From Acutalibacteraceae bacterium (GTDB lineage: Bacteria > Bacillota > Clostridia > Oscillospirales > Acutalibacteraceae), in contig JAZSGK010000023.1 in the NCBI GenBank assembly GCA_045532695.1, forward strand, positions 1 to 46,974: a DNA stretch of 46,974 nucleotides, written 5' to 3'. The first letter of the stretch is position 1, and every line of letters starts with the position of its first letter. The notes below the pieces were generated by a model. The model was not told the origin of the DNA. It ran no database searches and saw nothing but the letters and a program-made list of their open reading frames with translations. This document shows positions 3,446 to 19,559 of the stretch, in pieces. The position numbers were made by a program, and so were the translations under genes.

Positions 3446-4162
3446 TTACCACTGTGAATTGTCACTTAAAATTCTCAATAAAACATTTACAAGAAGCTCT
3501 GTAAGGCAGGCTTCCTGTCTGTTATTCATCTCTCTGTAATCCTCGACAGAAGCGTCATCGGCATCGTCGCTTATCTTACGAAGAGACAGCATAGGCACAC
3601 CGCACTTGTCGCACACACCTGCAATCGCCGCTGTTTCCATATCGAAGGACTCGATACCGAAAGTGTCTCTGTAAAGCTCCTTCTTAACCTTATCTGTAAG
3701 GAATATGTCTCCTGTACCCGCCTTAGCCTTGATTATACCCTCACTCATAAGAGCATAGGACATAAGCTTTTCATCGGCGGAGTAAATATATTTCTGTCCG
3801 TCAGCTTTGACACCCAAAGGCTTTCCGATAGCTGTAAGGTCATAGTCACACTCTACATAAGTTTCTACCGCAATCATATCTTCTCTTCTGAGCTTCTGCA
3901 CTGCACCTGAAAGGCCAGCATTGAGAATAATATCAGCCTTATCCTCACCTATTAAAAACGCTGTTGCCGAAGCGGCGTTGACTTTACCGATACCGCATCT
4001 GACACCGATAATTTCAAGAGTTCTTTCGCCCTCGGTAATTGTAAGACTGCAGGAATCATTACCTCGTCTTGTGCTTTCAGCACAGCCTTTCTCCTTTGCC
4101 CATTGTAAAAAAGGTCCGTATTCCATAGTATCCGCAAAAAGTATGCCTACTGTTTTTTTCAT
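3446..4162 (-). CDS. MTA/SAH nucleosidase family protein (Pfs/MtnN-like, PNP_UDP_1 fold)
   Basis: CGIGKVNAASATAFLI..ADIILNAGLSGAV parallels SGIGKVAAA..DVIINTGSAGG of E. coli Pfs. Start set to ATG 4162 (MKKTVGIL), which has AAAGGA upstream. Confidence 0.75.
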   Translation of the reverse strand: MKKTVGILFADTMEYGPFLQWAKEKGCAESTRRGNDSCSLTITEGERTLEIIGVRCGIGKVNAASATAFLIGEDKADIILNAGLSGAVQKLRREDMIAVETYVECDYDLTAIGKPLGVKADGQKYIYSADEKLMSYALMSEGIIKAKAGTGDIFLTDKVKKELYRDTFGIESFDMETAAIAGVCDKCGVPMLSLRKISDDADDASVEDYREMNNRQEACLTELLVNVLLRILSDNSQW

Positions 4163-4249
4163 AATTAAAATCCTTTCTGTGTAATTTCTTTTATTTTTTC
4201 TTCTTATGAGAAACAAAAAAACTTTTATCTCTCAACAACCTTGTTTTTA

Positions 4250-4279
4250 ATTATATCCTATTGAATCCCTCAATGTCAA
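4250..4279 (-). promoter_or_regulatory. sigmaA-type promoter upstream of the nucleosidase gene
   Basis: Minus strand reads TTGACA (4274-4279), an 18-nt spacer, then TATAAT (4250-4255). Confidence 0.45.
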
Positions 4280-4412
4280 TGTCGGCCTTTAAGCATAAAA
4301 TAAAAATGTGAGCGAAATTTCGCTTTACTGCAAAAGGCAACCGGTGGGTCAGACTTTTTCTCAATAGCTCCCCCCTTGAACAGCCGGTTTATATCCTTTG
4401 CAGTTACTATAC

Positions 4413-4440
4413 CGAAGCTGCATATTATTGCAGCTTCGGA
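4413..4440. other. perfect 11-bp stem hairpin (CCGAAGCTGCA tattat TGCAGCTTCGG)
   Basis: Read directly from the sequence. It lies in a 430-nt intergenic region next to further nested complementarity (see findings). Confidence 0.7.
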
Positions 4441-4594
4441 AGAAGCCTGTCTTCTTTTGTGAAATGTATGTGTTAACAGATTAAATAAAAAATAAAAATT
4501 TCCTAAACCTGCTTAAAATTGCCTTAAAACTGTTGCATATTACTTTATTTTTTGGTATAATTCCCTTACCAAATAACAAAGGAGGAAAAAAGCT

Positions 4595-4912
4595 ATGAAA
4601 AAGATTTTAAGCGTAGTTTTAGTTCTTGTTCTTATGATGTCGGTTGCCCTCGTTGCTTCAGCAACAGACGGTGCATTAGGAAACGCAGGCACAGAGGCTG
4701 TATTCCCCGAAGCACCTGAAATGCCTTCAATCGATACTATCTTCAATGCTGTATCTGATTTCCTTAAGCTCGAAGCTTTTGCACCTTACATTTCAGGTTT
4801 CCATGAAGCTCTCGGCGGTTTCTACATACAGCTTGACTTATGGCTCAGAGCACTCGGCGTTGTTCTCAACGGTGCTATCGGTGGACTCCTGAACAGCGGT
4901 ATTTTCGGTTAA
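4595..4912 (+). CDS. small secreted protein, Gly-rich hydrophobic C-terminus
   Basis: AAGGAGG RBS 8 nt upstream of the ATG. Sec-type signal peptide MKKILSVVLVLVLMMSVALVASA. A strong terminator follows. Confidence 0.7.
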   Translation: MKKILSVVLVLVLMMSVALVASATDGALGNAGTEAVFPEAPEMPSIDTIFNAVSDFLKLEAFAPYISGFHEALGGFYIQLDLWLRALGVVLNGAIGGLLNSGIFG

Positions 4913-4933
4913 TATTACATACTGCAAATCTTA

Positions 4934-4967
4934 TTCGCTAATACCCAGTGTATTAGCGAATTTTTTT
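4934..4967 (+). terminator. intrinsic terminator
   Basis: 11-bp stem TTCGCTAATAC/GTATTAGCGAA with a 5-nt loop, followed by T7. Confidence 0.8.
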
Positions 4968-4992
4968 GAGCACTAACCAAAGAGGGGATTCT

Positions 4993-6381
4993 ATGAAATT
5001 TAAAGAAACTATAAAAATATCTTCACCTTATTTTAAGAGAATGGTCTTCATCGCCATTCCCATAATGATACAAAACGGTATAACTAATTTTGTCAGTATG
5101 CTGGATAACATTATGGTCGGCAGAGTCGGAACATTACAGATGACGGGTGTTTCCATAGTCAATCAGCTCATTTTCGTTTTCGGCCTTTGCATATTCGGCG
5201 CAATGTCCGGTGCCGGTATTTTCACAGCTCAGTTTTACGGCAAAAAAGACAAAGACGGCATCCGTTCAACCCTGCAGTATAAACTGGCAGCCAGTCTCCT
5301 TCTTGCAGTGGCGGGCACAGTGATATTTACCCTTGCAGGTGAAACGCTGATTTCCTTCTACCTTCAGGGCGAGGGTTCTCCCGAAGATGTTGCTGCTGTT
5401 ATGAATTACAGCAAAAGCTATCTCAGGATAATGATTGTCGGCACAGTGCCCTTTGCACTTTCTCAGGCTTATGCAAGCACCATGAGAGAAACAAGCGACA
5501 GACTCACTCCCATGGTCGCAACTGTATCCGCAGTATTGGTCAATCTCATATTCAATTACCTTCTTATTTTCGGTAAGTTCGGTTTTCCCGAGCTCGGAGT
5601 TGACGGTGCAGCTATAGCAACAACTCTTTCGAGATTTGTCGAGCTCGGAATACTCGTAATAAGAGCCCACACCAACAAAAAGAAATACAACTTCATTCCC
5701 GGACTTTTCACAAAATTCACTATCACAAAAGCCCAGGTATGGAAAATCACTCTTGTCACCATTCCTCTTCTTCTCAACGAAACTCTCTGGGCTGCAGGTA
5801 TAGCTGTTCTTAACCAGTGTTATTCCATAAGAGGTCTTGATGTTGTTGCGGCAATCAATATTGTCTCCACTCTCAGCAATGTTTTCAACGTAGCCTTTAT
5901 AGCTTTCGGTCACGCTACAGGCATAATTCTCAGTCAGATGCTCGGAGCAAACGAAAAGAAACAGGCAAAATTTGCCGCCCCCAAGCTTTTTGCTTTTTCG
6001 TTCTTTACGGTTATACTCATTTCTTTATTTATGATGGTTGTTGCACAGTTTTTCCCGAAAATATACAACACTGACGATACCGTAAGAAACATTGCTACAT
6101 CTCTGATAACTGTCGCAGCGATTTTTATGCCTGTGCAAGCAGGCACCAACGCCGGATATTTCACCCTTCGCTCCGGCGGAAAGACTCTTATAACTTTTCT
6201 CTTCGACTGTGGATTCGTGTGGATAATAAATATTCCTCTGGCTTTTGTTCTCAGCCGTTTTACCGATATGGGAATCATTTACCTTTACGCTTGTGTTCTC
6301 AGCACCGACGTAGTCAAATGTATTCTCAGCTTCATACTTGTTAAAAAGGGCGTCTGGCTGAACAATGTTGTCGATGATTGA
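4993..6381 (+). CDS. MATE family efflux transporter
   Basis: 12-TM-like protein with the typical MATE N-terminus (FKRMVFIAIPIMIQNGITNFVSMLDNIMVGRVG). The track start 4966 is TTG. ATG 4993 follows AGAGGGGA. Confidence 0.9.
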   Translation: MKFKETIKISSPYFKRMVFIAIPIMIQNGITNFVSMLDNIMVGRVGTLQMTGVSIVNQLIFVFGLCIFGAMSGAGIFTAQFYGKKDKDGIRSTLQYKLAASLLLAVAGTVIFTLAGETLISFYLQGEGSPEDVAAVMNYSKSYLRIMIVGTVPFALSQAYASTMRETSDRLTPMVATVSAVLVNLIFNYLLIFGKFGFPELGVDGAAIATTLSRFVELGILVIRAHTNKKKYNFIPGLFTKFTITKAQVWKITLVTIPLLLNETLWAAGIAVLNQCYSIRGLDVVAAINIVSTLSNVFNVAFIAFGHATGIILSQMLGANEKKQAKFAAPKLFAFSFFTVILISLFMMVVAQFFPKIYNTDDTVRNIATSLITVAAIFMPVQAGTNAGYFTLRSGGKTLITFLFDCGFVWIINIPLAFVLSRFTDMGIIYLYACVLSTDVVKCILSFILVKKGVWLNNVVDD

Positions 6382-6447
6382 CAGCACTTGAAAAGCACTG
6401 CGATTTATGATATAATCCTTTCATAACTATTTAGGAGAAATAATAAA

Positions 6448-6822
6448 ATGAAGATACAGCAATCCGCAGAAAATTATCTCGAAACCATATTGATGCTTTC
6501 TCAGAAAAGCGGCAGTGTACGCTCAATAGATATTGCAAATGAATTAGGATTTTCAAAACCCAGCGTAAGCATCGCTATGAAAAATCTCCGTGAAAACGGC
6601 TATATAGATGTTATGGGTGACGGCAGCATCGTTCTTCTGCCTCCCGGAAAGGAAATAGCCGAAAGACTTTATATGAGACATACGGTACTAACAGAGTGCT
6701 TTACTCTTTTGGGCGTATCAAAAGAAACCGCTACAGAGGACGCCTGCAAAATCGAACACATACTTTCCGAAGAAAGCTTTAACGCTATAAAAAATCATTT
6801 AAGCAAATTCAGAGACAAATAA
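6448..6822 (+). CDS. DtxR/MntR-family metal-dependent transcriptional regulator (short form)
   Basis: SAENYLETILML..SIDIANELGFSKPSVSIAMKNLRENGYI is the DtxR-type wHTH. AGGAG RBS. Confidence 0.85.
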   Translation: MKIQQSAENYLETILMLSQKSGSVRSIDIANELGFSKPSVSIAMKNLRENGYIDVMGDGSIVLLPPGKEIAERLYMRHTVLTECFTLLGVSKETATEDACKIEHILSEESFNAIKNHLSKFRDK

Positions 6823-6825
6823 TAA

Positions 6826-6862
6826 CAGCTGTACCGATTATAGTCGGTACAGCTGATTTTTT
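6826..6862. terminator. bidirectional intrinsic terminator between convergent genes
   Basis: 12-bp stem CAGCTGTACCGA/TCGGTACAGCTG followed by a T-run. Confidence 0.8.
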
Positions 6863-6870
6863 ATCATATA

Positions 6871-8289
6871 TCAGTTTTCACCTTTGAGCTGTTTAGCAAG
6901 CTTCTTGCCGTGCTCTCTCATTTCGAGCACGAAATCTCCCTTAGGCTCATAGAACATACCTCGCTTTGACATAAAGCGGTATTCACCCTCTTTTAAGAGC
7001 ATAATCACAAAGCCGCCTATTATTGCGCAGCCGATTATAATCGCAAAGAGCGGCAGTCTGCAGGTAAGCCAATCACCCGAACGAAGAGGAAGAGTGAAGC
7101 TCATATAGATTTCGCCTCTTTGGAAAAGCTCAGCAAAGGTATATGATACGTTCCCGTATGTATAGTTTCCTGTTGCGTACACAGGAAGCGAGCCGTCGGT
7201 ATAAGCAGTATTGACAATACCGAAAAGTGCTGTCAGCACTCCGCCTACAGCTGAGCCCGCCATAAGCCCGGGAATTACCGTAAAGGGACTTCTGCAGGCA
7301 AGGGGCATCGAGAATGCCGTTGTAAGCTTGATGTTTTCAAAAATCGCATTGATGGGACCTGAGGTTGCGAAGTTCATATCGTCGGTATCGGTCTTACCTT
7401 TTTTGAATATCTTGCAAAGAAGAATACCGAAGAATGATGTCCAGCCTGTTGCAATGAAGCAGACGCTGTAAATTGTAATAAGCTGAGCATTACCTGTTGT
7501 AAGATAAGCTGTTGTTGCTACGGAGAATGCCGCAAGAGATACGGGACCGATAAGGTCAAAACCCACCATAAGACCCATAACAAGAGCTGCAAGGACAACA
7601 TTATTTTCCGCCATAGCAGTAAGTGTGTTACCGAGAGACTCAGCAATAGCCGCAAAGGGAAGCTGTATACCGTACTTGACAATCATAAAGGTAGTTGCCG
7701 CCGATGCTACGGGGATAATAAGAATCATAACAATAAGGTCAACACCTTCGATAATTTCAAGACCTTTAACAGTATCGGGAACAGCTTTTATTTTTCTGAG
7801 AAGCTTATCAATCTTGCTGCCGATTACAGGCTTCAGATCTGACCAGCCTGCATAGAGAAGCTTTATGAGAAGTGCAAGCATTACCGCCATAATAAGATAT
7901 CCCATATAACCTATGGAAGTTGCTTTCTCATAGTTTTCGGGAGTTGCGAAGAAGCACACATATGTGTTTACAGCATCCGGGGGAGCCGAGGTAAAGTGAG
8001 CAAAATAAAGTGACAGTGCCAATGCAGGTGCAACACCCGGGAGGCCTGCTATAAGATAAGACACCAGCACGGCTAACACTACAAAGAAGAAGTCCGTTGC
8101 CCAGAAAAGTATAAACCAGAGTGTCGGTTCATTTTCTGCTCCTGTCCAGCCTAAAATGTGATAGGACTGAACGATGTTCTGCACAAAGAAGAAAAAGCCT
8201 GCACCGAGAGCACCAAAAAGCTGAACTATAAATATAATCGATGTGGCACGGTAGATTTTCTCTTTTGTGTCCAAATAAAGTTTTTTCAT
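6871..8289 (-). CDS. PTS EIIC-like (fructose-type) integral membrane protein, orphan
   Basis: Polytopic membrane protein. The C-terminal segment PFTVIPGLMAGSAVGGVLTALFG resembles the EIIC-Fru region that follows GITEGAIPF. Start set to ATG 8289 (MKKLYLD), which has AAGGAGAGAG upstream. The function call is tentative. Confidence 0.6.
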   Translation of the reverse strand: MKKLYLDTKEKIYRATSIIFIVQLFGALGAGFFFFVQNIVQSYHILGWTGAENEPTLWFILFWATDFFFVVLAVLVSYLIAGLPGVAPALALSLYFAHFTSAPPDAVNTYVCFFATPENYEKATSIGYMGYLIMAVMLALLIKLLYAGWSDLKPVIGSKIDKLLRKIKAVPDTVKGLEIIEGVDLIVMILIIPVASAATTFMIVKYGIQLPFAAIAESLGNTLTAMAENNVVLAALVMGLMVGFDLIGPVSLAAFSVATTAYLTTGNAQLITIYSVCFIATGWTSFFGILLCKIFKKGKTDTDDMNFATSGPINAIFENIKLTTAFSMPLACRSPFTVIPGLMAGSAVGGVLTALFGIVNTAYTDGSLPVYATGNYTYGNVSYTFAELFQRGEIYMSFTLPLRSGDWLTCRLPLFAIIIGCAIIGGFVIMLLKEGEYRFMSKRGMFYEPKGDFVLEMREHGKKLAKQLKGEN

Positions 8290-13584: not shown

Positions 13585-13659
13585 GCCTCCATAGTTAAAT
13601 GGATATAATAAACCCCTCCTAAGGGTTAGTTACAGGTTCGATTCCTGTTGGGGGTGCCA
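13585..13659 (+). tRNA. tRNA-Arg (anticodon CCT), CCA encoded
   Basis: Hand-folded cloverleaf: acceptor GCCTCCA/TGGGGGT (two G-U pairs), D-arm GTTA-AATGGATA-TAAT, anticodon arm AACCC-CTCCTAA-GGGTT, 4-nt variable loop, T-arm ACAGG-TTCGATT-CCTGT, discriminator G and CCA. Confidence 0.8.
13616..13659 (+). repeat. 44-nt direct repeat copy 1 (tRNA anticodon loop to CCA; attL-like)
   Basis: CTCCTAAGGGTTAGTTACAGGTTCGATTCCTGTTGGGGGTGCCA is identical to 15764-15807. Confidence 0.9.
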
Positions 13660-13684: not shown

Positions 13685-13778
13685 AAGAATAAAGAATAAA
13701 CAAGAAATAAAAATGTTTCCGTTTTCGGTGCCGCTTCTGTATTATTCTTTATTCTTTATTATTTTTTCTTTATTCTTT
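13685..13778. repeat. 15-bp perfect inverted repeat plus a third direct copy
   Basis: AAGAATAAAGAATAA (13685-13699) is the reverse complement of TTATTCTTTATTCTT (13742-13756). TTCTTTATTCTTT recurs at 13766-13778. Confidence 0.85.
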
Positions 13779-13796
13779 AAAAAGGAAAATAACGAT

Positions 13797-14153
13797 ATGC
13801 AGAAAGATAATCCCTTATTAGATAAATCCTTGTTATTCGCCGCAAGAATAGTAAAACTCAATAGATACCTTACCAAAGAGAAAAAAGAAACAGTTATCGC
13901 TAAGCAGATTATCCGCAGTGCGACATCAATAGGTGCAAATGCCAACGAAGCGATTTACGGTCAGAGCAAGGCTGATTTTATAGCAAAGCTGCAGATTTCT
14001 CTGAAAGAAACCGCTGAAACAGAATATTGGTTAAGACTTTTGATTTTATCTGAATACATAACCGATAAGGAAGGTAATTCTTTGCTGGATGACTGCCTTG
14101 AAATTAAAAGAATACTCATTTCTACACTGAAAACTGCAAAAGAAAACAATTAA
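13797..14153 (+). CDS. four-helix-bundle protein (23S rRNA intervening-sequence protein family)
   Basis: SATSIGANANEA..DFI.KLQISLKETAETEYWLRLL is the family signature. ATG 13797 follows AAGGAAA. The track start 13713 adds an implausible hydrophobic extension. Confidence 0.85.
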   Translation: MQKDNPLLDKSLLFAARIVKLNRYLTKEKKETVIAKQIIRSATSIGANANEAIYGQSKADFIAKLQISLKETAETEYWLRLLILSEYITDKEGNSLLDDCLEIKRILISTLKTAKENN

Positions 14154-15807: not shown

Positions 15808-15846
15808 AAAAATCCCGTTCGTGTCAGCGAATGGGATTTTTACTTT
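15808..15846 (+). terminator. terminator following the distal tRNA 3'-half copy
   Basis: Stem AAATCCC(GTTCG)/(CGAAT)GGGATTT followed by a T-run. Confidence 0.6.
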
Positions 15847-16035
15847 TTACTTTTTCACTATTACCTTTTCCCCCCTTGTATTTTCACCCGGGATTATTTG
15901 AAAGTAAGAAGTAATAGGTAAGAGAGAATAGGTGTATTATTAGCTTCACTGTAGTATACATCAAAAAATAATGTTAAACTTTATGTAAGATCAGACACAT
16001 AAAATCGGTTTATATAGGTGAGAGGAGGTTTTCAG

Positions 16036-16596
16036 ATGGAAGATAAACAGATAATAAAGCTTTTATTTATGAGAGCTGAAGAAGCACTTCGAATTTTGCG
16101 GGAGCGTTACGGCAACACCTTATACAGAATCGCAATTAATATTCTCGGTAATCATCACGACGCAGAAGAGACAACAAACGATACATATCTTGCCGTTTGG
16201 AATGCAATACCGCCTAAAGAACCCGATCCTTTGGCTCCTTATGTATATCGTACCGGAAGAAATATTGCTCTGAAACGCTTGGAGTATCTTTCAGCCGAAA
16301 AACGAAACAGCAGATATGATTTGTCTTTAGATGAGCTTGCACCCTATTTGCCCGACGACAGTATCGAGCATATCCTCAACACTCGGGATATCGCCGACTC
16401 TATAAATAAGCTTTTAGAAAAAGAGACTGCTATTAACAGATATATTTTCATCCGTCGGTATTGGTACGGAGATTCAGTTGAGGATATAGCAAAAGAAGTC
16501 AATATGAAAAGCGGTGCCGTTTCGGTACGGTTAAACCGTATCAGAACAAAATTAAAAAAACATCTTATTAAGGAGGGTTATTACTATGAAGCGTAA
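16036..16596 (+). CDS. ECF-type sigma-70 family RNA polymerase sigma factor
   Basis: Region 2 (DAEETTNDTYLAVW) and region 4 HTH (SVEDIAKEVNMKSGAVSVRLNRIRTKLKK). ATG 16036 follows GAGGAGG. The track start 16018 is GTG. Confidence 0.9.
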   Translation: MEDKQIIKLLFMRAEEALRILRERYGNTLYRIAINILGNHHDAEETTNDTYLAVWNAIPPKEPDPLAPYVYRTGRNIALKRLEYLSAEKRNSRYDLSLDELAPYLPDDSIEHILNTRDIADSINKLLEKETAINRYIFIRRYWYGDSVEDIAKEVNMKSGAVSVRLNRIRTKLKKHLIKEGYYYEA

Positions 16597-18022
16597 GCAC
16601 GTATTGGAAGTTTTGGATAAAATAGACGACAGATTCATCACGGAAGCTGAAAAAGCTCCGAAGGAAATGAAAAAAAGGCCATATTGGATAGGCGCAGTTG
16701 CCGCTGTTTTGGCGGTAGTAATTTGTATCAGCTCTTTTCTCAATACACCTATAATTACAGCAAATGCCATTGCTCTTCCGGAAGATGCACGAATTATGGA
16801 GCGTCCGGACCTTGATGACTACGAAGACAGAGAAAACTATATGACTGATGTTGAAATATGGAGTTCGGTATTAGAGAATAGAAGAACTATAAGAGAAAAT
16901 GTTGCTTCTTCTTTGTCGCAGTTTTTTACAAAAGCATCAGCTGAATTTCTTTCTTCAGAGAACAATGAAAACGCCTTATGGTCACCTATAAATGCATATA
17001 TCGGACTCTCTATGCTTGCTGAAATAACCGACGGTGACAGCCGTAAGGAAATTTTAGATTTATTTGGCGTAAGGGATATTGAAACACTCAGAAGTCAAGT
17101 CAGTGCAGTATGGGAATCTGTTTATGAGGATGACGGAAATGAAATATCCACATTAGCTAATTCTCTTTGGCTTGAAGGCGGACTTAATTACAATCAGGAT
17201 ACTATGAATAACCTTGCATATCACTATTATGCTTCTGTGTATCAGACTGACCTTGGCAGTGATAGTGCAAACAAGTCAATAGGTAATTGGCTTAATAAAA
17301 ACACAGGCGGCTTATTAAAAGACTGTACAGACAAAATCGACTTATCTCCCGATACTGTCCTGGCTCTCTATTCAACACTCTTCTTCCAAGCTAAATGGAG
17401 CAACGAGTTTGACGGTAAAAATAATACTGACAGTGTTTTCCACGGTGTTAACGGAGACAACAATGTCACTTATATGAACAAAAAGCTCTGTCAGATGTAT
17501 TATTATTGGAATGATGATTACAGTGCAGTAGCATTAAGTCTTAAAAACGGATGCACAATGTGGTTTATTCTTCCCGACGAAGGAATGACAACTGCTGATG
17601 TGTTAAATGGCGGCGCTTACGGAAAAATGATTTCTTCGGGTGACGGTGAAGAAGGTTGGCAAAATAAAAAGTATATGAAGGTCAATCTGTCTGTACCGAA
17701 ATTTGATGTTTCTTCCACAATAAATTTAAAAGATGGACTCGGCAGAATGGGAGTAAAAAAAGTATTTGATATGGAAAGCTCTGATTTTACAGCAATCACC
17801 TCAGATATTCCCGTGTATATATCAGCCGTTAATCAGTCTGCAAGAGTTGAAATCGATGAAAAAGGTGTAAAAGCGGCAACATATATAGAACTTCCCGGCG
17901 CAGGTGCAGCACAGCCACCTGAAGAAATAATAGATTTTGTACTCGACAGACCATTTGTATTTGTGATTTCCAAAGGCAATTTGCCTCTGTTTACAGGTGT
18001 AGTGAATAATATACAATATTAG
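16586..18022 (+). CDS. membrane-anchored serpin (anti-sigma-like N-terminus plus TM plus serpin domain)
   Basis: AGGAGGG RBS. The ATG overlaps the sigma gene by 11 nt. TM segment YWIGAVAAVLAVVICISSFL. Serpin body begins NALWSPINAYIGLSMLAEITDG. The C-terminus IDEKGVKAATYIELPGAGAAQPPEE..DRPFVFVI..PLFTGVVNN parallels alpha-1-antitrypsin [41 protein letters not shown]. Confidence 0.9.
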   Translation: MKRKHVLEVLDKIDDRFITEAEKAPKEMKKRPYWIGAVAAVLAVVICISSFLNTPIITANAIALPEDARIMERPDLDDYEDRENYMTDVEIWSSVLENRRTIRENVASSLSQFFTKASAEFLSSENNENALWSPINAYIGLSMLAEITDGDSRKEILDLFGVRDIETLRSQVSAVWESVYEDDGNEISTLANSLWLEGGLNYNQDTMNNLAYHYYASVYQTDLGSDSANKSIGNWLNKNTGGLLKDCTDKIDLSPDTVLALYSTLFFQAKWSNEFDGKNNTDSVFHGVNGDNNVTYMNKKLCQMYYYWNDDYSAVALSLKNGCTMWFILPDEGMTTADVLNGGAYGKMISSGDGEEGWQNKKYMKVNLSVPKFDVSSTINLKDGLGRMGVKKVFDMESSDFTAITSDIPVYISAVNQSARVEIDEKGVKAATYIELPGAGAAQPPEEIIDFVLDRPFVFVISKGNLPLFTGVVNNIQY

Positions 18023-18031
18023 TAAAACCGA

Positions 18032-18075
18032 ATATGCACCCCAGAAGCCAGACGCTTTCAGGGTGCATATCATTT
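18032..18075. terminator. hairpin between convergent genes
   Basis: 10-bp stem ATATGCACCC/GGGTGCATAT with a 19-nt loop and T-rich sequence downstream. Confidence 0.55.
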
Positions 18076-18095: not shown

Positions 18096-19559
18096 TTATC
18101 CGAAGAACTCTGCAACCAGCTCATCTGTATCCTTAAGATTTATCCTCTTTGAGCAGATGTATGTTCTGAGTGTGCCGTCATCGAGCTTTTCATCAGGGCT
18201 GAACTTGCCGTAGCCGCAGGTGACTATGGTATCGTCAGGCAGTACAACATTGCCGCTGTAGCCTGTGTCTGAGCCTGCGTAGTATTCGGGCTCTGTCTGA
18301 TCGTCAAAATAGATGTGGGCAACTTTGATTCTGTAGTCGCCTTCTGTGCCGTTTTTGAGATCTTCATAAGTACCGACCCAGGCAACAAGACCCGCGCTTA
18401 TCCAGCCTCTTGTTCTGTCTGTTGCAGTTTCCGCATTTGCTCTCGCCTTGGCGCCTCTCTCAATCGAGCGGAATGTGATAAAGAGTCTGCCGTCTGAGGT
18501 GTACTCTGCCTTGTGTCTTTCACCGTTGAGCGCCGCAGGAGCCTCTACAGGCTTGCTCCAGGTTTTACCCTCGTCAGTCGAGAATGAAATCAGCGAATTG
18601 ATTTTCTTGGTGTTGCTTCTTGTTATAAGACAAAGCTCGTCACCCTGTCCCTTATCCGATCTTATAACTTCAACCTCGCACATATTTGAGCTCTTCTCAA
18701 TCTCCCTGTGCTCGGCAAAGTACTTTTCGGGCTTGCTCCACTGCATATTGCCATTTTCATCAAAAGTGAGAATTGTCTTATAGTTATAGAAATCCGCATC
18801 GTGGAAAAGTCCCATCCACTTATCTGTAAACTCACCGTTTTCCTTGAGTCTTGTAAGGCTCGACATGGCCACTATAGGCACTACGGGAGTGTCGCTCTTA
18901 AGATCGTAGAATCTTTTGAACTCTGTCCATGTTTTGCCCTCGTCTTCAGATACAGAGCATTCAAATCCGCCTACTGTGGTGCTGTTGGGCCATCTGGGGT
19001 TAGCAGAAATCAGAATGAGCTTATCGGGGGTACCGTCAGAGAATTCAAGGCGGTAAATTGTCGGTGTTTCCTGAGAATTCACCCAGCTTTCGGGAGTGTT
19101 TTCTACTGTTTCACTCCAAGTGACACCGCCGTCTGTGCTGATTTTATTGAGTACCGCGCCCTTACCGTGACCGGCAGGGTACACAGTAAGAATGTTGCCG
19201 TTTCTGAGAAGCACGCTGTCGGGATGAGCCATATAGTCTTTAGAATTGTCTACTGTGGAAAGATTGTAGAGATATTCATATTTGCTGCCTTTCAGCTCGT
19301 CGGGCATAGTGCTCAGATCAAGCTCCGGTATGGTATAATCGCCTCCCGTGAATTTATTCGGTATAAACAGACTTGCAAAATCCGAGAAAAACTTTTTAAT
19401 CTTAGCAAAGATATCCTTAAAGAAATCCCCTATCTTGTCAAAAAAGCTTACACTTTCCGTCTGTGCTTCTGCGCTGTCAGCAGCGAATGCTACAGATGCG
19501 CAAGGCATAAGAAGCGCCGCACACAGAATAAGCACAATTATTTTTTTCAATGTTTTCAT
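18096..19559 (-). CDS. secreted BNR/Asp-box repeat protein (sialidase/GH33-like)
   Basis: Signal peptide. Asp-boxes STDGGVTWSE, SEDEGKTWTE and STDEGKTWSK. GGAGG RBS. Confidence 0.85.
   Translation of the reverse strand: MKTLKKIIVLILCAALLMPCASVAFAADSAEAQTESVSFFDKIGDFFKDIFAKIKKFFSDFASLFIPNKFTGGDYTIPELDLSTMPDELKGSKYEYLYNLSTVDNSKDYMAHPDSVLLRNGNILTVYPAGHGKGAVLNKISTDGGVTWSETVENTPESWVNSQETPTIYRLEFSDGTPDKLILISANPRWPNSTTVGGFECSVSEDEGKTWTEFKRFYDLKSDTPVVPIVAMSSLTRLKENGEFTDKWMGLFHDADFYNYKTILTFDENGNMQWSKPEKYFAEHREIEKSSNMCEVEVIRSDKGQGDELCLITRSNTKKINSLISFSTDEGKTWSKPVEAPAALNGERHKAEYTSDGRLFITFRSIERGAKARANAETATDRTRGWISAGLVAWVGTYEDLKNGTEGDYRIKVAHIYFDDQTEPEYYAGSDTGYSGNVVLPDDTIVTCGYGKFSPDEKLDDGTLRTYICSKRINLKDTDELVAEFFG

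Follow-up and report, generated by a model that had tools for sequence, protein, structure and literature searches.

An extracytoplasmic function sigma factor gene coupled to a membrane-anchored serpin gene in gut Clostridia: a probable sigma/anti-sigma pair with a proposed role in protease sensing

The window analyzed here, a 46,974-nucleotide (nt) stretch of DNA from an Acutalibacteraceae bacterium (contig JAZSGK010000023.1, assembly GCA_045532695.1), carries a gene for an extracytoplasmic function (ECF) sigma factor that overlaps the gene for a membrane-anchored serpin. Judging by their sequences, the two proteins very probably form a cognate sigma/anti-sigma pair in which the serpin is the ectodomain of the anti-sigma factor. 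The sigma-serpin arrangement is far beyond chance, since the coupled pair recurs in 79 sampled loci with differing flanks. We infer that the serpin ectodomain would sense proteases. For the whole chain, an autoregulated sigma/anti-sigma operon with a serpin sensor that detects proteases, we put the chances at about even.

The first protein of the pair matched the Pfam families Sigma70_r2 (3.3e-10), Sigma70_r4_2 (1.3e-6) and Sigma70_ECF (8e-5), and the sigma70-ECF model TIGR02937 with 65.6 bits (cut-off 42.9). With 186 amino acids (aa), sigma-2 and sigma-4 regions only and these ECF models matched, it has the make-up of an ECF (group 4) sigma factor, and its nearest relatives in the PDB were SigE, SigW and SigL. 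A probable cognate regulator, co-transcribed and directly downstream as is typical of such genes, is also present here: the serpin open reading frame (ORF) begins with the ATG at 16586, which gives an overlap of 11 nt (16586-16596). A first-pass annotation of the window, made from the sequence alone, had described the sigma ORF, the 11-nt overlap and an AGGAGGG ribosome-binding site for the second gene, and all three are in the sequence, the ORFs at the coordinates it gave. Its assignment of the second protein to the serpins and of the first to the sigma factors was borne out by hmmscan, with PF00079 on the former and Sigma70_r2 and Sigma70_r4_2 on the latter. The PF00079 match (E 4.2e-65, residues 112-475) covers model positions 5-369 of 370, placing the extracytoplasmic domain within the serpin superfamily. 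Sequence matches to PDB serpins reached E 1.7e-35 and included conserpin, alpha-1-antitrypsin and tengpin. The AlphaFold model of the protein had a mean predicted local distance difference test (pLDDT) score of 85.6 and a predicted template modelling (pTM) score of 0.81, and Foldseek returned native serpins at probability 1.00, with native tengpin (2PEE, E 7.6e-31) as the top PDB match. No family of NCBIfam release 20 matched the serpin protein (16586-18019), and the source annotations call its relatives "serpin family protein" or "hypothetical protein".

Ahead of the serpin domain, the protein starts with a short module of consensus M-K-x-E-K-L-x-x-A-x-x-x-I-D-D-x-x-I-x-E-A, followed by a basic stretch. 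Among orthologues, the mean column identity of this module was 0.86, compared to 0.88 for the serpin domain and 0.72 for the extracellular linker. AlphaFold predicted two short helices in the module (residues 3-11 and 15-21) with modest confidence, and a disordered basic linker. The cytoplasmic segment is about 31 residues long in the window protein, and the family median is 36. Since the hydrophobic residues 33-52 follow a K/R-rich stretch, the positive-inside rule predicts an N-in, C-out topology. The strings quoted by the first-pass annotation from the short cytoplasmic N-terminus and the single transmembrane (TM) helix are residues 8-23 and 33-52 respectively, in agreement with the TM helix modelled by AlphaFold at 34-53.

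To describe the distribution of the pair, we compared homologues at several depths. Close serpin homologues (76-88% identical) formed more than 120 clusters in gut metagenome-assembled genomes (MAGs), and the sigma homologues fell into two sets, one of orthologues and another at 60-65% identity. Three contigs covering both sigma sets retained the 11-nt overlap, and their flanking genes were wholly different. An exhaustive HMMER search of 50%-identity cluster representatives gave 30,686 serpins, the top 150 of which (36-60% identical) were classified. Most of these were 450-500 aa long and alignable from residue 1. The N-terminal module was present in 131 of the 150; the remaining representatives mostly had a lipobox or a signal peptide, and a few were N-terminally truncated or unclassified. 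A genome scan with one genome per GTDB species then gave at least 576 related serpin loci, and we analyzed the best 80. An ECF sigma gene lay upstream, overlapping the serpin gene by 4-20 nt, in 73 of these 80 gut Clostridia loci, which makes good the suggestion of the first-pass annotation that Clostridia neighbourhoods be searched for such pairs. Six of the other seven loci had a signal-peptide or lipoprotein serpin without a sigma gene, and one was cut by a contig end. Across the 79 coupled pairs sampled, the overlap was 4 nt (33 pairs), 8 nt (13) or 11 nt (26) in most cases and fell between 4 and 20 nt in 78. The taxa concerned were Acutalibacteraceae (the closest relatives of the window), Oscillospiraceae, Faecousia, Lachnospiraceae and Ruminococcus, and the coupled pair was also found in the cultured Pseudoflavonifractor phocaeensis An507 and Hominifimenecus sp. 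rT4P-3 (complete genome). The eight complete serpins without a sigma gene in the sampled loci all had a signal peptide or lipobox and no module.

We further analyzed which part of the serpin protein follows the sigma factor. A hidden Markov model (HMM) of the module, built solely from serpin N-termini, found two non-serpin ORFs in the sampled loci, both lying directly downstream of the paralogous sigma genes closest to those linked to serpins. In these loci, ECF sigma factors that are further removed had zf-HC2-like partners. An alignment headed by one of the paralogous sigma factors then served to scan metagenomes, from which 76 directly downstream proteins were collected. The module HMM matched 71 of them, while just 5 were serpins, and nearly all overlapped the sigma gene by 4 nt. 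These partners were 168-759 aa long, and their ectodomains matched Beta_propel, DUF3160 or, near threshold, DUF4179 with or without DUF5643, several having no Pfam match. It is therefore the module that is linked to the sigma factor; the ectodomains are swapped, the serpin being one of many. As far as sequence comparison can tell, a module that travels with a sigma clade while its ectodomains are interchanged is behaving as a cognate anti-sigma domain, and it would sequester the sigma factor, inactive, at the membrane. Taken together, these results make systematic the anti-sigma position that the first-pass annotation had proposed for the serpin protein from this one locus: the sampled serpins carry the module only when they follow a sigma gene, and 71 of the 76 partners of the clade have it as well.

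Several observations extend this picture. In the locus L026, a sigma-serpin pair (3451-5422) is followed directly by a paralogous sigma gene and a module protein with a non-serpin ectodomain (5536-6854); by its sequence, the signalling cassette has been duplicated in tandem here and its sensor exchanged. Among the non-serpin partners from the metagenomes, the most frequent was a protein with a conserved ectodomain, about 520-560 aa, containing the motif FMSYAGPVFPL and without a Pfam or NCBIfam match (L088 3055-4638, L091, L095, L107, L114, L118, L127, L133 and many others); on sequence grounds, this is an uncharacterised sensor family attached to the module. Two serpins were found in each of the loci L077 (3917-5416 and 5644-7380), L039 (4001-5443 and, on the reverse strand, 6210-7466) and L060 (208-1233 and 2162-3571), where a sigma-coupled serpin lies beside a second serpin with a signal peptide or lipobox; in one case the second serpin is extended by a further N-terminal domain of about 180 aa. 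These loci may thus combine a serpin that acts as sensor with another that is a free inhibitor. Two pairs occur together in a single Faecousia MAG (L020 and L083, on JAZNPV010000160.1 and JAZNPV010000130.1), and their reactive loops differ (FPGAT-S-PAPPE and LPEAG-A-APPPE), which hints at several loop specificities in one cell. Finally, longer module-TM-serpin variants were found (P0373, 820 aa; P0385, 657 aa; P0304, 599 aa; P0313, 606 aa), with acidic low-complexity spacers, a further domain inserted between TM helix and serpin, or a C-terminal extension.

In relation to known anti-sigma families, class I anti-sigma domains are cytoplasmic four-helix domains of about 80-90 residues. A class I domain (zf-HC2 / RsrA / RskA-like) was ruled out for the window protein by the lack of a curated match and a cytoplasmic segment of about 31 residues. 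Very short helical sigma-binding segments, as proposed for the window protein, characterize the class II domains of the CnrY and NepR type; the models scanned showed no similarity to these domains, and factors of the CnrY type occur in Proteobacteria and rely on a separate protein as sensor. The DUF4179 family (PF13786; RsiV, BAS1627) was the only one to appear repeatedly, at low scores and over the TM helix and its juxtamembrane surroundings: three non-serpin module partners scored 27, 23.3 and 19 bits where the cut-off is 30.1, with nearly the whole model covered by the two highest-scoring ones, and about 30 of 120 homologues of one non-serpin module partner carry a stored PF13786 tag. In RsiV, DUF4179 contains the signal-peptidase site-1 site, masked until lysozyme binds (PMC6066255). 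We do not claim membership of DUF4179 for the serpin protein, its score being below the gathering cut-off, and we treat the sub-threshold sequence signal as a lead to mechanism and not as family membership.

Just outside the membrane, the window protein has an A-x-A motif, a candidate signal-peptidase site. Among 54 non-redundant serpin partners, 44 had such a motif within 30 residues past the TM helix, compared to 12 of the 54 control windows. Locus L067 contains a secreted paralogue that lacks a sigma gene; there, ANA followed by LAVAEYPEM occupies the equivalent position and ends a classical signal peptide. AlphaFold places the motif of the window protein in a short strand (residues 60-63) and predicts with high scores (pLDDT 87-97 for residues 61-100) an extension leading into a helix that spans residues 82-122.

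We next considered the reactive-centre loop, whose window hinge reads E-K-G-V-K-A-A-T-Y. Counting 17 residues from the hinge Glu425 puts P1-P1' exactly at the Ala-Ala codons 17906-17911 named by the first-pass annotation. Its gap-free alignment to alpha-1-antitrypsin holds for the hinge and loop through PPE only; thereafter HMMER opened a 4-residue gap opposite EIID, and the alignment is not gap-free throughout because of a 4-residue insertion past PPE relative to alpha-1-antitrypsin. We tallied the loop positions over 73 non-redundant sigma-coupled serpins. P17 Glu and P15 Gly were invariant (73/73), P12 was Ala in 70 and P11 Ala in 69, P10 was Ala, Ser, Thr or Val, P14 was Val or Cys, and P9 was Tyr or Phe. 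The counted P1 was Ala in 26, Ser in 26 and Gly in 15 (67/73 together), followed by A-x-P-P-(E/D). Thus the hinge of the inhibitory class, with P17 Glu, P15 Gly, small P12-P10 residues and 17 residues from P17 to P1, is present across the 73 members, as had been supposed for the window protein. Val or Cys at P14 and Tyr or Phe at P9 are unusual residues, yet they are oriented to compatible sides of the strand. The loop had a pLDDT below 50, as expected of an exposed loop. In the shutter region, the equivalent of Ser53 is Ser133 and is invariant; the Ser56 position is Asn family-wide, and the His334 position is His in most of the wider family (consensus HAARV). Overall, the sequences fit a loop-inserting inhibitory serpin whose targets would be elastase- or subtilisin-type enzymes.

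Upstream of the sigma gene, we found a candidate ECF-type promoter, TGTAAGAT-N-AAAATCGGT-TTATATAGG (15984-16016). The motif was common to the upstream regions of divergent loci with unrelated flanks, and in 32 non-redundant upstream regions TGTAAGA lay at a fixed position, about -52 from the sigma start. Other lineages had TGTAAC, TGCAAC or TGTGAC, N16 and CGGT or CGTC. A loose regular expression matched 31 of 75 non-redundant upstream regions, compared to 0.86 expected from shuffles. ECF promoters generally carry AAC in the -35 element and CGT in the -10 element, a pattern from which the TGTAAG-N16-CGGT of the window deviates. Since the motif is kept upstream across loci and is the sole such site in the window, positive autoregulation of the operon, with the serpin itself as a main output, is likely from the sequence. 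The unit appears well delimited, because hairpins bound it on both sides (15808-15841 and 18032-18070) and the sigma-serpin pair is therefore a self-contained two-gene unit. The downstream hairpin has a folding energy of -21.3 kcal/mol (z-score -6.5), a stability that none of 200 shuffled sequences reached. A structured leader ahead of the sigma gene was also looked for, and the Rfam and tRNA scans gave no match near the operon. Past the -10 region, an element TATAGGTGA(A/G)AGG is kept across lineages (window 16010-16028; L053, L057, L070, L078, L038, L039). It is merged with the ribosome-binding site in the window clade and elsewhere separate and partly palindromic (GAAAGG.CCTTTC, GAAGAGCTCTTC), which suggests a conserved 5'-leader or start-site element. 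The features of the unit are collected in Table 1.

Table 1. Coordinates of the features of the sigma-serpin unit, as positions in the window.
Feature	Position	Strand	Basis or remark
Terminator-like hairpin ending the upstream transcription unit	15808..15841	+	15 pairs then T-run; consensus terminator scan
Candidate autoregulated ECF-type promoter	15984..16016	+	-35-like TGTAAG 15984-15989, 16-nt spacer, -10-like CGGT 16006-16009, TTATATA
Ribosome-binding site of the sigma gene, GAGAGGAGG	16020..16028	+	Read from sequence; kept in upstream alignment
ECF (group 4) sigma factor gene, 186 aa	16036..16596	+	ATG 16036, TAA 16594-16596
Ribosome-binding site of the serpin gene, AGGAGGG	16571..16577	+	Within the 3' end of the sigma gene, 8 nt before ATG 16586
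Single-pass membrane protein, 478 aa, putative anti-sigma factor with serpin ectodomain	16586..18022	+	
Cytoplasmic N-terminal part, proposed sigma-binding segment	16586..16681	+	Module residues 1-24, basic stretch 25-32
TM helix, residues 33-53	16682..16744	+	Hydropathy 2.5; AlphaFold helix 34-53
A-x-A motif Ala59-Asn60-Ala61, then Ile62	16760..16768	+	Candidate signal-peptidase site-1, just outside the membrane
Ordered serpin N-terminal extension, residues 62-111, continuous with helix A (predicted)	16769..16918	+	AlphaFold
Serpin domain, residues 112-475	16919..18010	+	PF00079, PDB matches, Foldseek
Hinge and reactive-centre loop, P17 Glu425 to P1' Ala442	17858..17911	+	P1-P1' Ala441-Ala442 = 17906-17911
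Strong hairpin directly past the serpin stop, between convergent genes; probable operon terminator	18032..18070	+	

Based on these elements, we propose the following mechanism. An extracellular serine protease would attack the reactive-centre loop and become trapped; a P1 as small as Ala, Ser or Gly points to an attacker resembling elastase or subtilisin, probably from the host gut or a competitor. The loop would then insert into sheet A in the stressed-to-relaxed (S-to-R) transition. The inserted state may be incompatible with docking of the N-terminal extension, as in tengpin, which would free the strand containing Ala59-Asn60-Ala61. Signal peptidase could then cut after Ala61 (site 1), as for RsiV and RsiP, and a site-2 protease together with cytoplasmic proteases would clear the remaining stub. 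The freed sigma factor would transcribe its own operon from the promoter at 15984-16016, and the membrane would come to display more serpin, so that protease would induce its own inhibitor. In its most far-reaching form, the idea is that the irreversible, spring-loaded transition of the serpin acts as a transmembrane switch, the receptor detecting the catalytic activity of an extracellular protease by being consumed, so that one trapped protease frees one sigma factor, and that gut Clostridia carry panels of such receptors with differing reactive loops, the Faecousia MAG with the pairs L020 and L083 being an example; this we hold tentatively, at somewhat less than even chances.

A number of observations weigh against protease sensing by this route, or against the anti-sigma assignment on which it builds. 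Pfam and NCBIfam scans of the curated anti-sigma families gave no match to the module. DUF4179 reached just 16.4 bits on the window protein (cut-off 30.1, E 0.013, residues 29-89), and weak matches to it occurred in just 11 of 40 family members. The P14 Val and the P9 Tyr or Phe differ from textbook hinge residues, and the equivalents of the shutter residues Ser56 and His334 of alpha-1-antitrypsin are Asn136 and Gln417 in the window clade. The reactive loop was just moderately more variable than its flanks and was not the most variable window of the alignment; because of this moderate variability, we make no claim of diversifying selection on it. The point of loop cleavage lies about 380 residues from the membrane, and the link from the loop to the juxtamembrane strand would rest on the tengpin analogy and on the predicted model. 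No second copy of the promoter motif was found in the 47-kb window, and none of the ten nearest neighbour genes scanned encodes a protease, signal peptidase or site-2 protease. Finally, the A-x-A site could be cut constitutively, in which case the protein would be no more than a secreted serpin whose pro-region is unusual.

This last point leads to the main rival explanation, which we consider unlikely although it is the one that has most to be reckoned with, the two others discussed below being less likely. It keeps the sigma/anti-sigma pair but takes the serpin as cargo or effector: the A-x-A site would be cut constitutively or under envelope or secretion stress, the module, TM helix and A-x-A motif would together serve as a long signal-anchor from which soluble serpin is released, a site-2 protease would clear the stub, and sigma activity would report serpin export or the state of the envelope, not the presence of a protease. 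The position of the motif, 8-11 residues past the hydrophobic core, is indeed typical signal-peptidase geometry, and the homologous position ends a classical signal peptide in the secreted paralogue of L067. Many close relatives are plain lipoprotein or secreted serpins, so the ectodomain can act as a free inhibitor, and one module serves many unrelated ectodomains. Yet constitutive cutting would make an anti-sigma factor pointless, whereas the pair with its tight overlap is kept across families. In the predicted model, the motif is in a strand of an extension modelled as ordered and not in a free c-region, and by analogy the comparable RsiV site is masked until its ligand binds (PMC6066255).

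Doubts about the serpin itself rather than about its cutting give another alternative, that of a non-inhibitory, ligand-binding serpin (as hormone-carrying and chaperone serpins) on the same sigma/anti-sigma pair, or of an ectodomain in which any proteolysis triggers degradation; we regard this as improbable. It would account for the P14 Val, the aromatic P9 and the Asn and Gln shutter residues, all off the canonical inhibitory pattern, and for a P4-P5' stretch (G-A-G-x-A-x-P-P-E) that is fairly conserved and not hypervariable. Against it stand P17 Glu, P15 Gly and the Ala-rich P12-P10 in all 73 members, the signature that loop insertion requires, together with the canonical 17 residues from P17 to P1 and a native-state serpin with exposed loop in the predicted model; moreover, the related bacterial serpins that have been tested, tengpin and the siropins, are inhibitors (PMC1905895, PMC5127057). 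Least probable of all, and with a very small chance in our estimation, is mere co-transcription, in which the sigma factor drives the serpin gene, the N-terminus is a membrane anchor and the sigma factor is controlled otherwise. A curated anti-sigma domain was not detected in the N-terminus and the cytoplasmic segment of about 31 residues is very short, as a simple anchor would have it. A plain anchor would have no need of a conserved 22-residue two-helix motif, though, and this motif is on 71 of 76 partners of the sigma clade whatever the ectodomain and absent from every sampled serpin without a sigma gene. Overlaps of 4-11 nt also imply stoichiometric co-translation, which is typical of sigma/anti-sigma pairs, and no other candidate regulator gene was conserved next to the pair in the loci compared. 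We retain a protease-sensing sigma/anti-sigma pair as the preferred reading, at the graded strengths given above.

Regarding the genomic surroundings, the neighbour genes were rejected as functional partners (protease, signal peptidase or site-2 protease), being unrelated and not syntenic in other loci. A tRNA-Arg(CCT) gene (13585-13659) and then a gene for a 23S rRNA-intervening-sequence (four-helix-bundle) protein (13713-14153) lie upstream. The convergent neighbour on the reverse strand (18096-19559) encodes a secreted BNR/sialidase-like protein with a signal peptide and is not kept beside the pair elsewhere.

ECF sigma/anti-sigma pairs are a major bacterial sensing system, and to our knowledge the ligands of most anti-sigma ectodomains are unknown. 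Because serpins have a well-understood mechanism and a predictable class of ligand, the protease-sensing hypothesis is directly testable: a particular protease should switch on a particular promoter. The sigma-serpin system is widespread, its layout being shared by what are probably hundreds of related species, and the test could be made immediately in cultured strains. If the hypothesis is true, covalent, activity-based and single-use detection would be added to bacterial signal transduction. A suicide-substrate inhibitor would for the first time be seen to form the basis of a bacterial signalling receptor, and a prokaryotic serpin to take part in signalling. The response would replace the spent receptor-inhibitor, so that host or competitor proteases are both monitored and neutralised. 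It would also give a regulatory role to prokaryotic serpins, whose biology is poorly understood, and account for the way in which abundant Clostridia of the gut (Acutalibacteraceae, Oscillospiraceae, Lachnospiraceae, Ruminococcus) withstand elastase-type proteases of the host, a subject that work on siropins and the Bifidobacterium serpin links to inflammatory bowel disease. In addition, the analysis defines a large family of proposed anti-sigma factors in Clostridia, with a minimal module of about 22 residues and many uncharacterised sensor domains, a module family not covered by the Pfam and NCBIfam models scanned. The pair could be used as a compact protease biosensor in synthetic biology.

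In function, the known system most similar is SigV-RsiV (Bacillus subtilis, Clostridioides difficile, Enterococcus faecalis; ECF30, with an anti-sigma factor of the DUF4179 type), likewise a Firmicutes ECF pair. As proposed here for the window pair, an ECF sigma gene is followed by that of an anti-sigma factor which crosses the membrane once and binds sigma by a short cytoplasmic N-terminus, and the output guards against the enzyme sensed. The RsiV ectodomain recognises a host enzyme, and RsiV is cut by signal peptidase at a site 1 just outside the membrane and then by RasP (PMC4183432, PMC6066255). The window protein resembles RsiV in its topology, in the A-x-A motif past the TM helix and in a weak similarity to DUF4179; the profiles run on its N-terminal module gave no recognisable RsiV likeness. 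RsiV binds lysozyme non-covalently via a DUF3298-type domain, whereas the serpin of the window protein would hold its ligand in an irreversible covalent trap. In the SigP-RsiP system of Bacillus thuringiensis, signal peptidase cuts RsiP at site 1 on an extracellular cue (PMC8844934). This combination of an ECF sigma factor and a site-1-cut anti-sigma factor resembles the route proposed for the window pair, but the cue is a beta-lactam, perceived via penicillin-binding proteins, and the ectodomain is different, with no serpin.

On the serpin side, tengpin (Caldanaerobacter/Thermoanaerobacter tengcongensis; 2PEE, 2PEF), a Firmicutes serpin with a docking extension, was the top structural match to the window model. 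Its N-terminal extension caps a hydrophobic patch and holds the metastable native state, and once the S-to-R transition has taken place, strand s1A fills the site of the extension, so that docking is incompatible with loop insertion (PMC1905895). The N-terminal region of tengpin has just 56 residues, with no sigma-binding module or sigma partner reported, and the two extensions do not align in sequence, the match beginning at residue 123 of the window protein. Other inhibitory serpins come from anaerobes that live with a host, among them the siropins of Eubacterium siraeum and miropin of Tannerella forsythia. Elastase-type host proteases are inhibited by siropins (PMC5127057), and such targets fit the small P1 of the window serpin. 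Siropins and miropin, the latter just mid-ranking among the structural matches to the window model, are reported as cytoplasmic, secreted or lipid-anchored, with no signalling role.

The first-pass annotation knew of no characterised pair of this kind, and our searches of the full-text literature agree: no description of a serpin with an anti-sigma or ECF link was found there, subscription papers and the supplements of ECF classifications lying outside the search. Serpins are unmentioned in the main text of the ECF re-classification paper, and no sigma link is mentioned in the reviews of gut and prokaryotic serpins that were checked. The nearest precedent in logic is the serpin of Bifidobacterium (B. 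breve UCC2003, B. longum), which is reported to be induced by proteases via the autoregulated SerRK two-component system (Alvarez-Martin et al. 2012, PMC3457475, cited among the references of PMC8201313). There, a gut commensal makes a serpin upon meeting a protease, through a dedicated autoregulated system, much as proposed for the window pair. In SerRK, the histidine kinase and response regulator are apart from the serpin, whereas in the window protein the serpin is fused to the signalling protein. Compared to both SigV-RsiV and SerRK, the novelty we propose for the sigma-serpin pair is that the serpin itself serves as the receptor.

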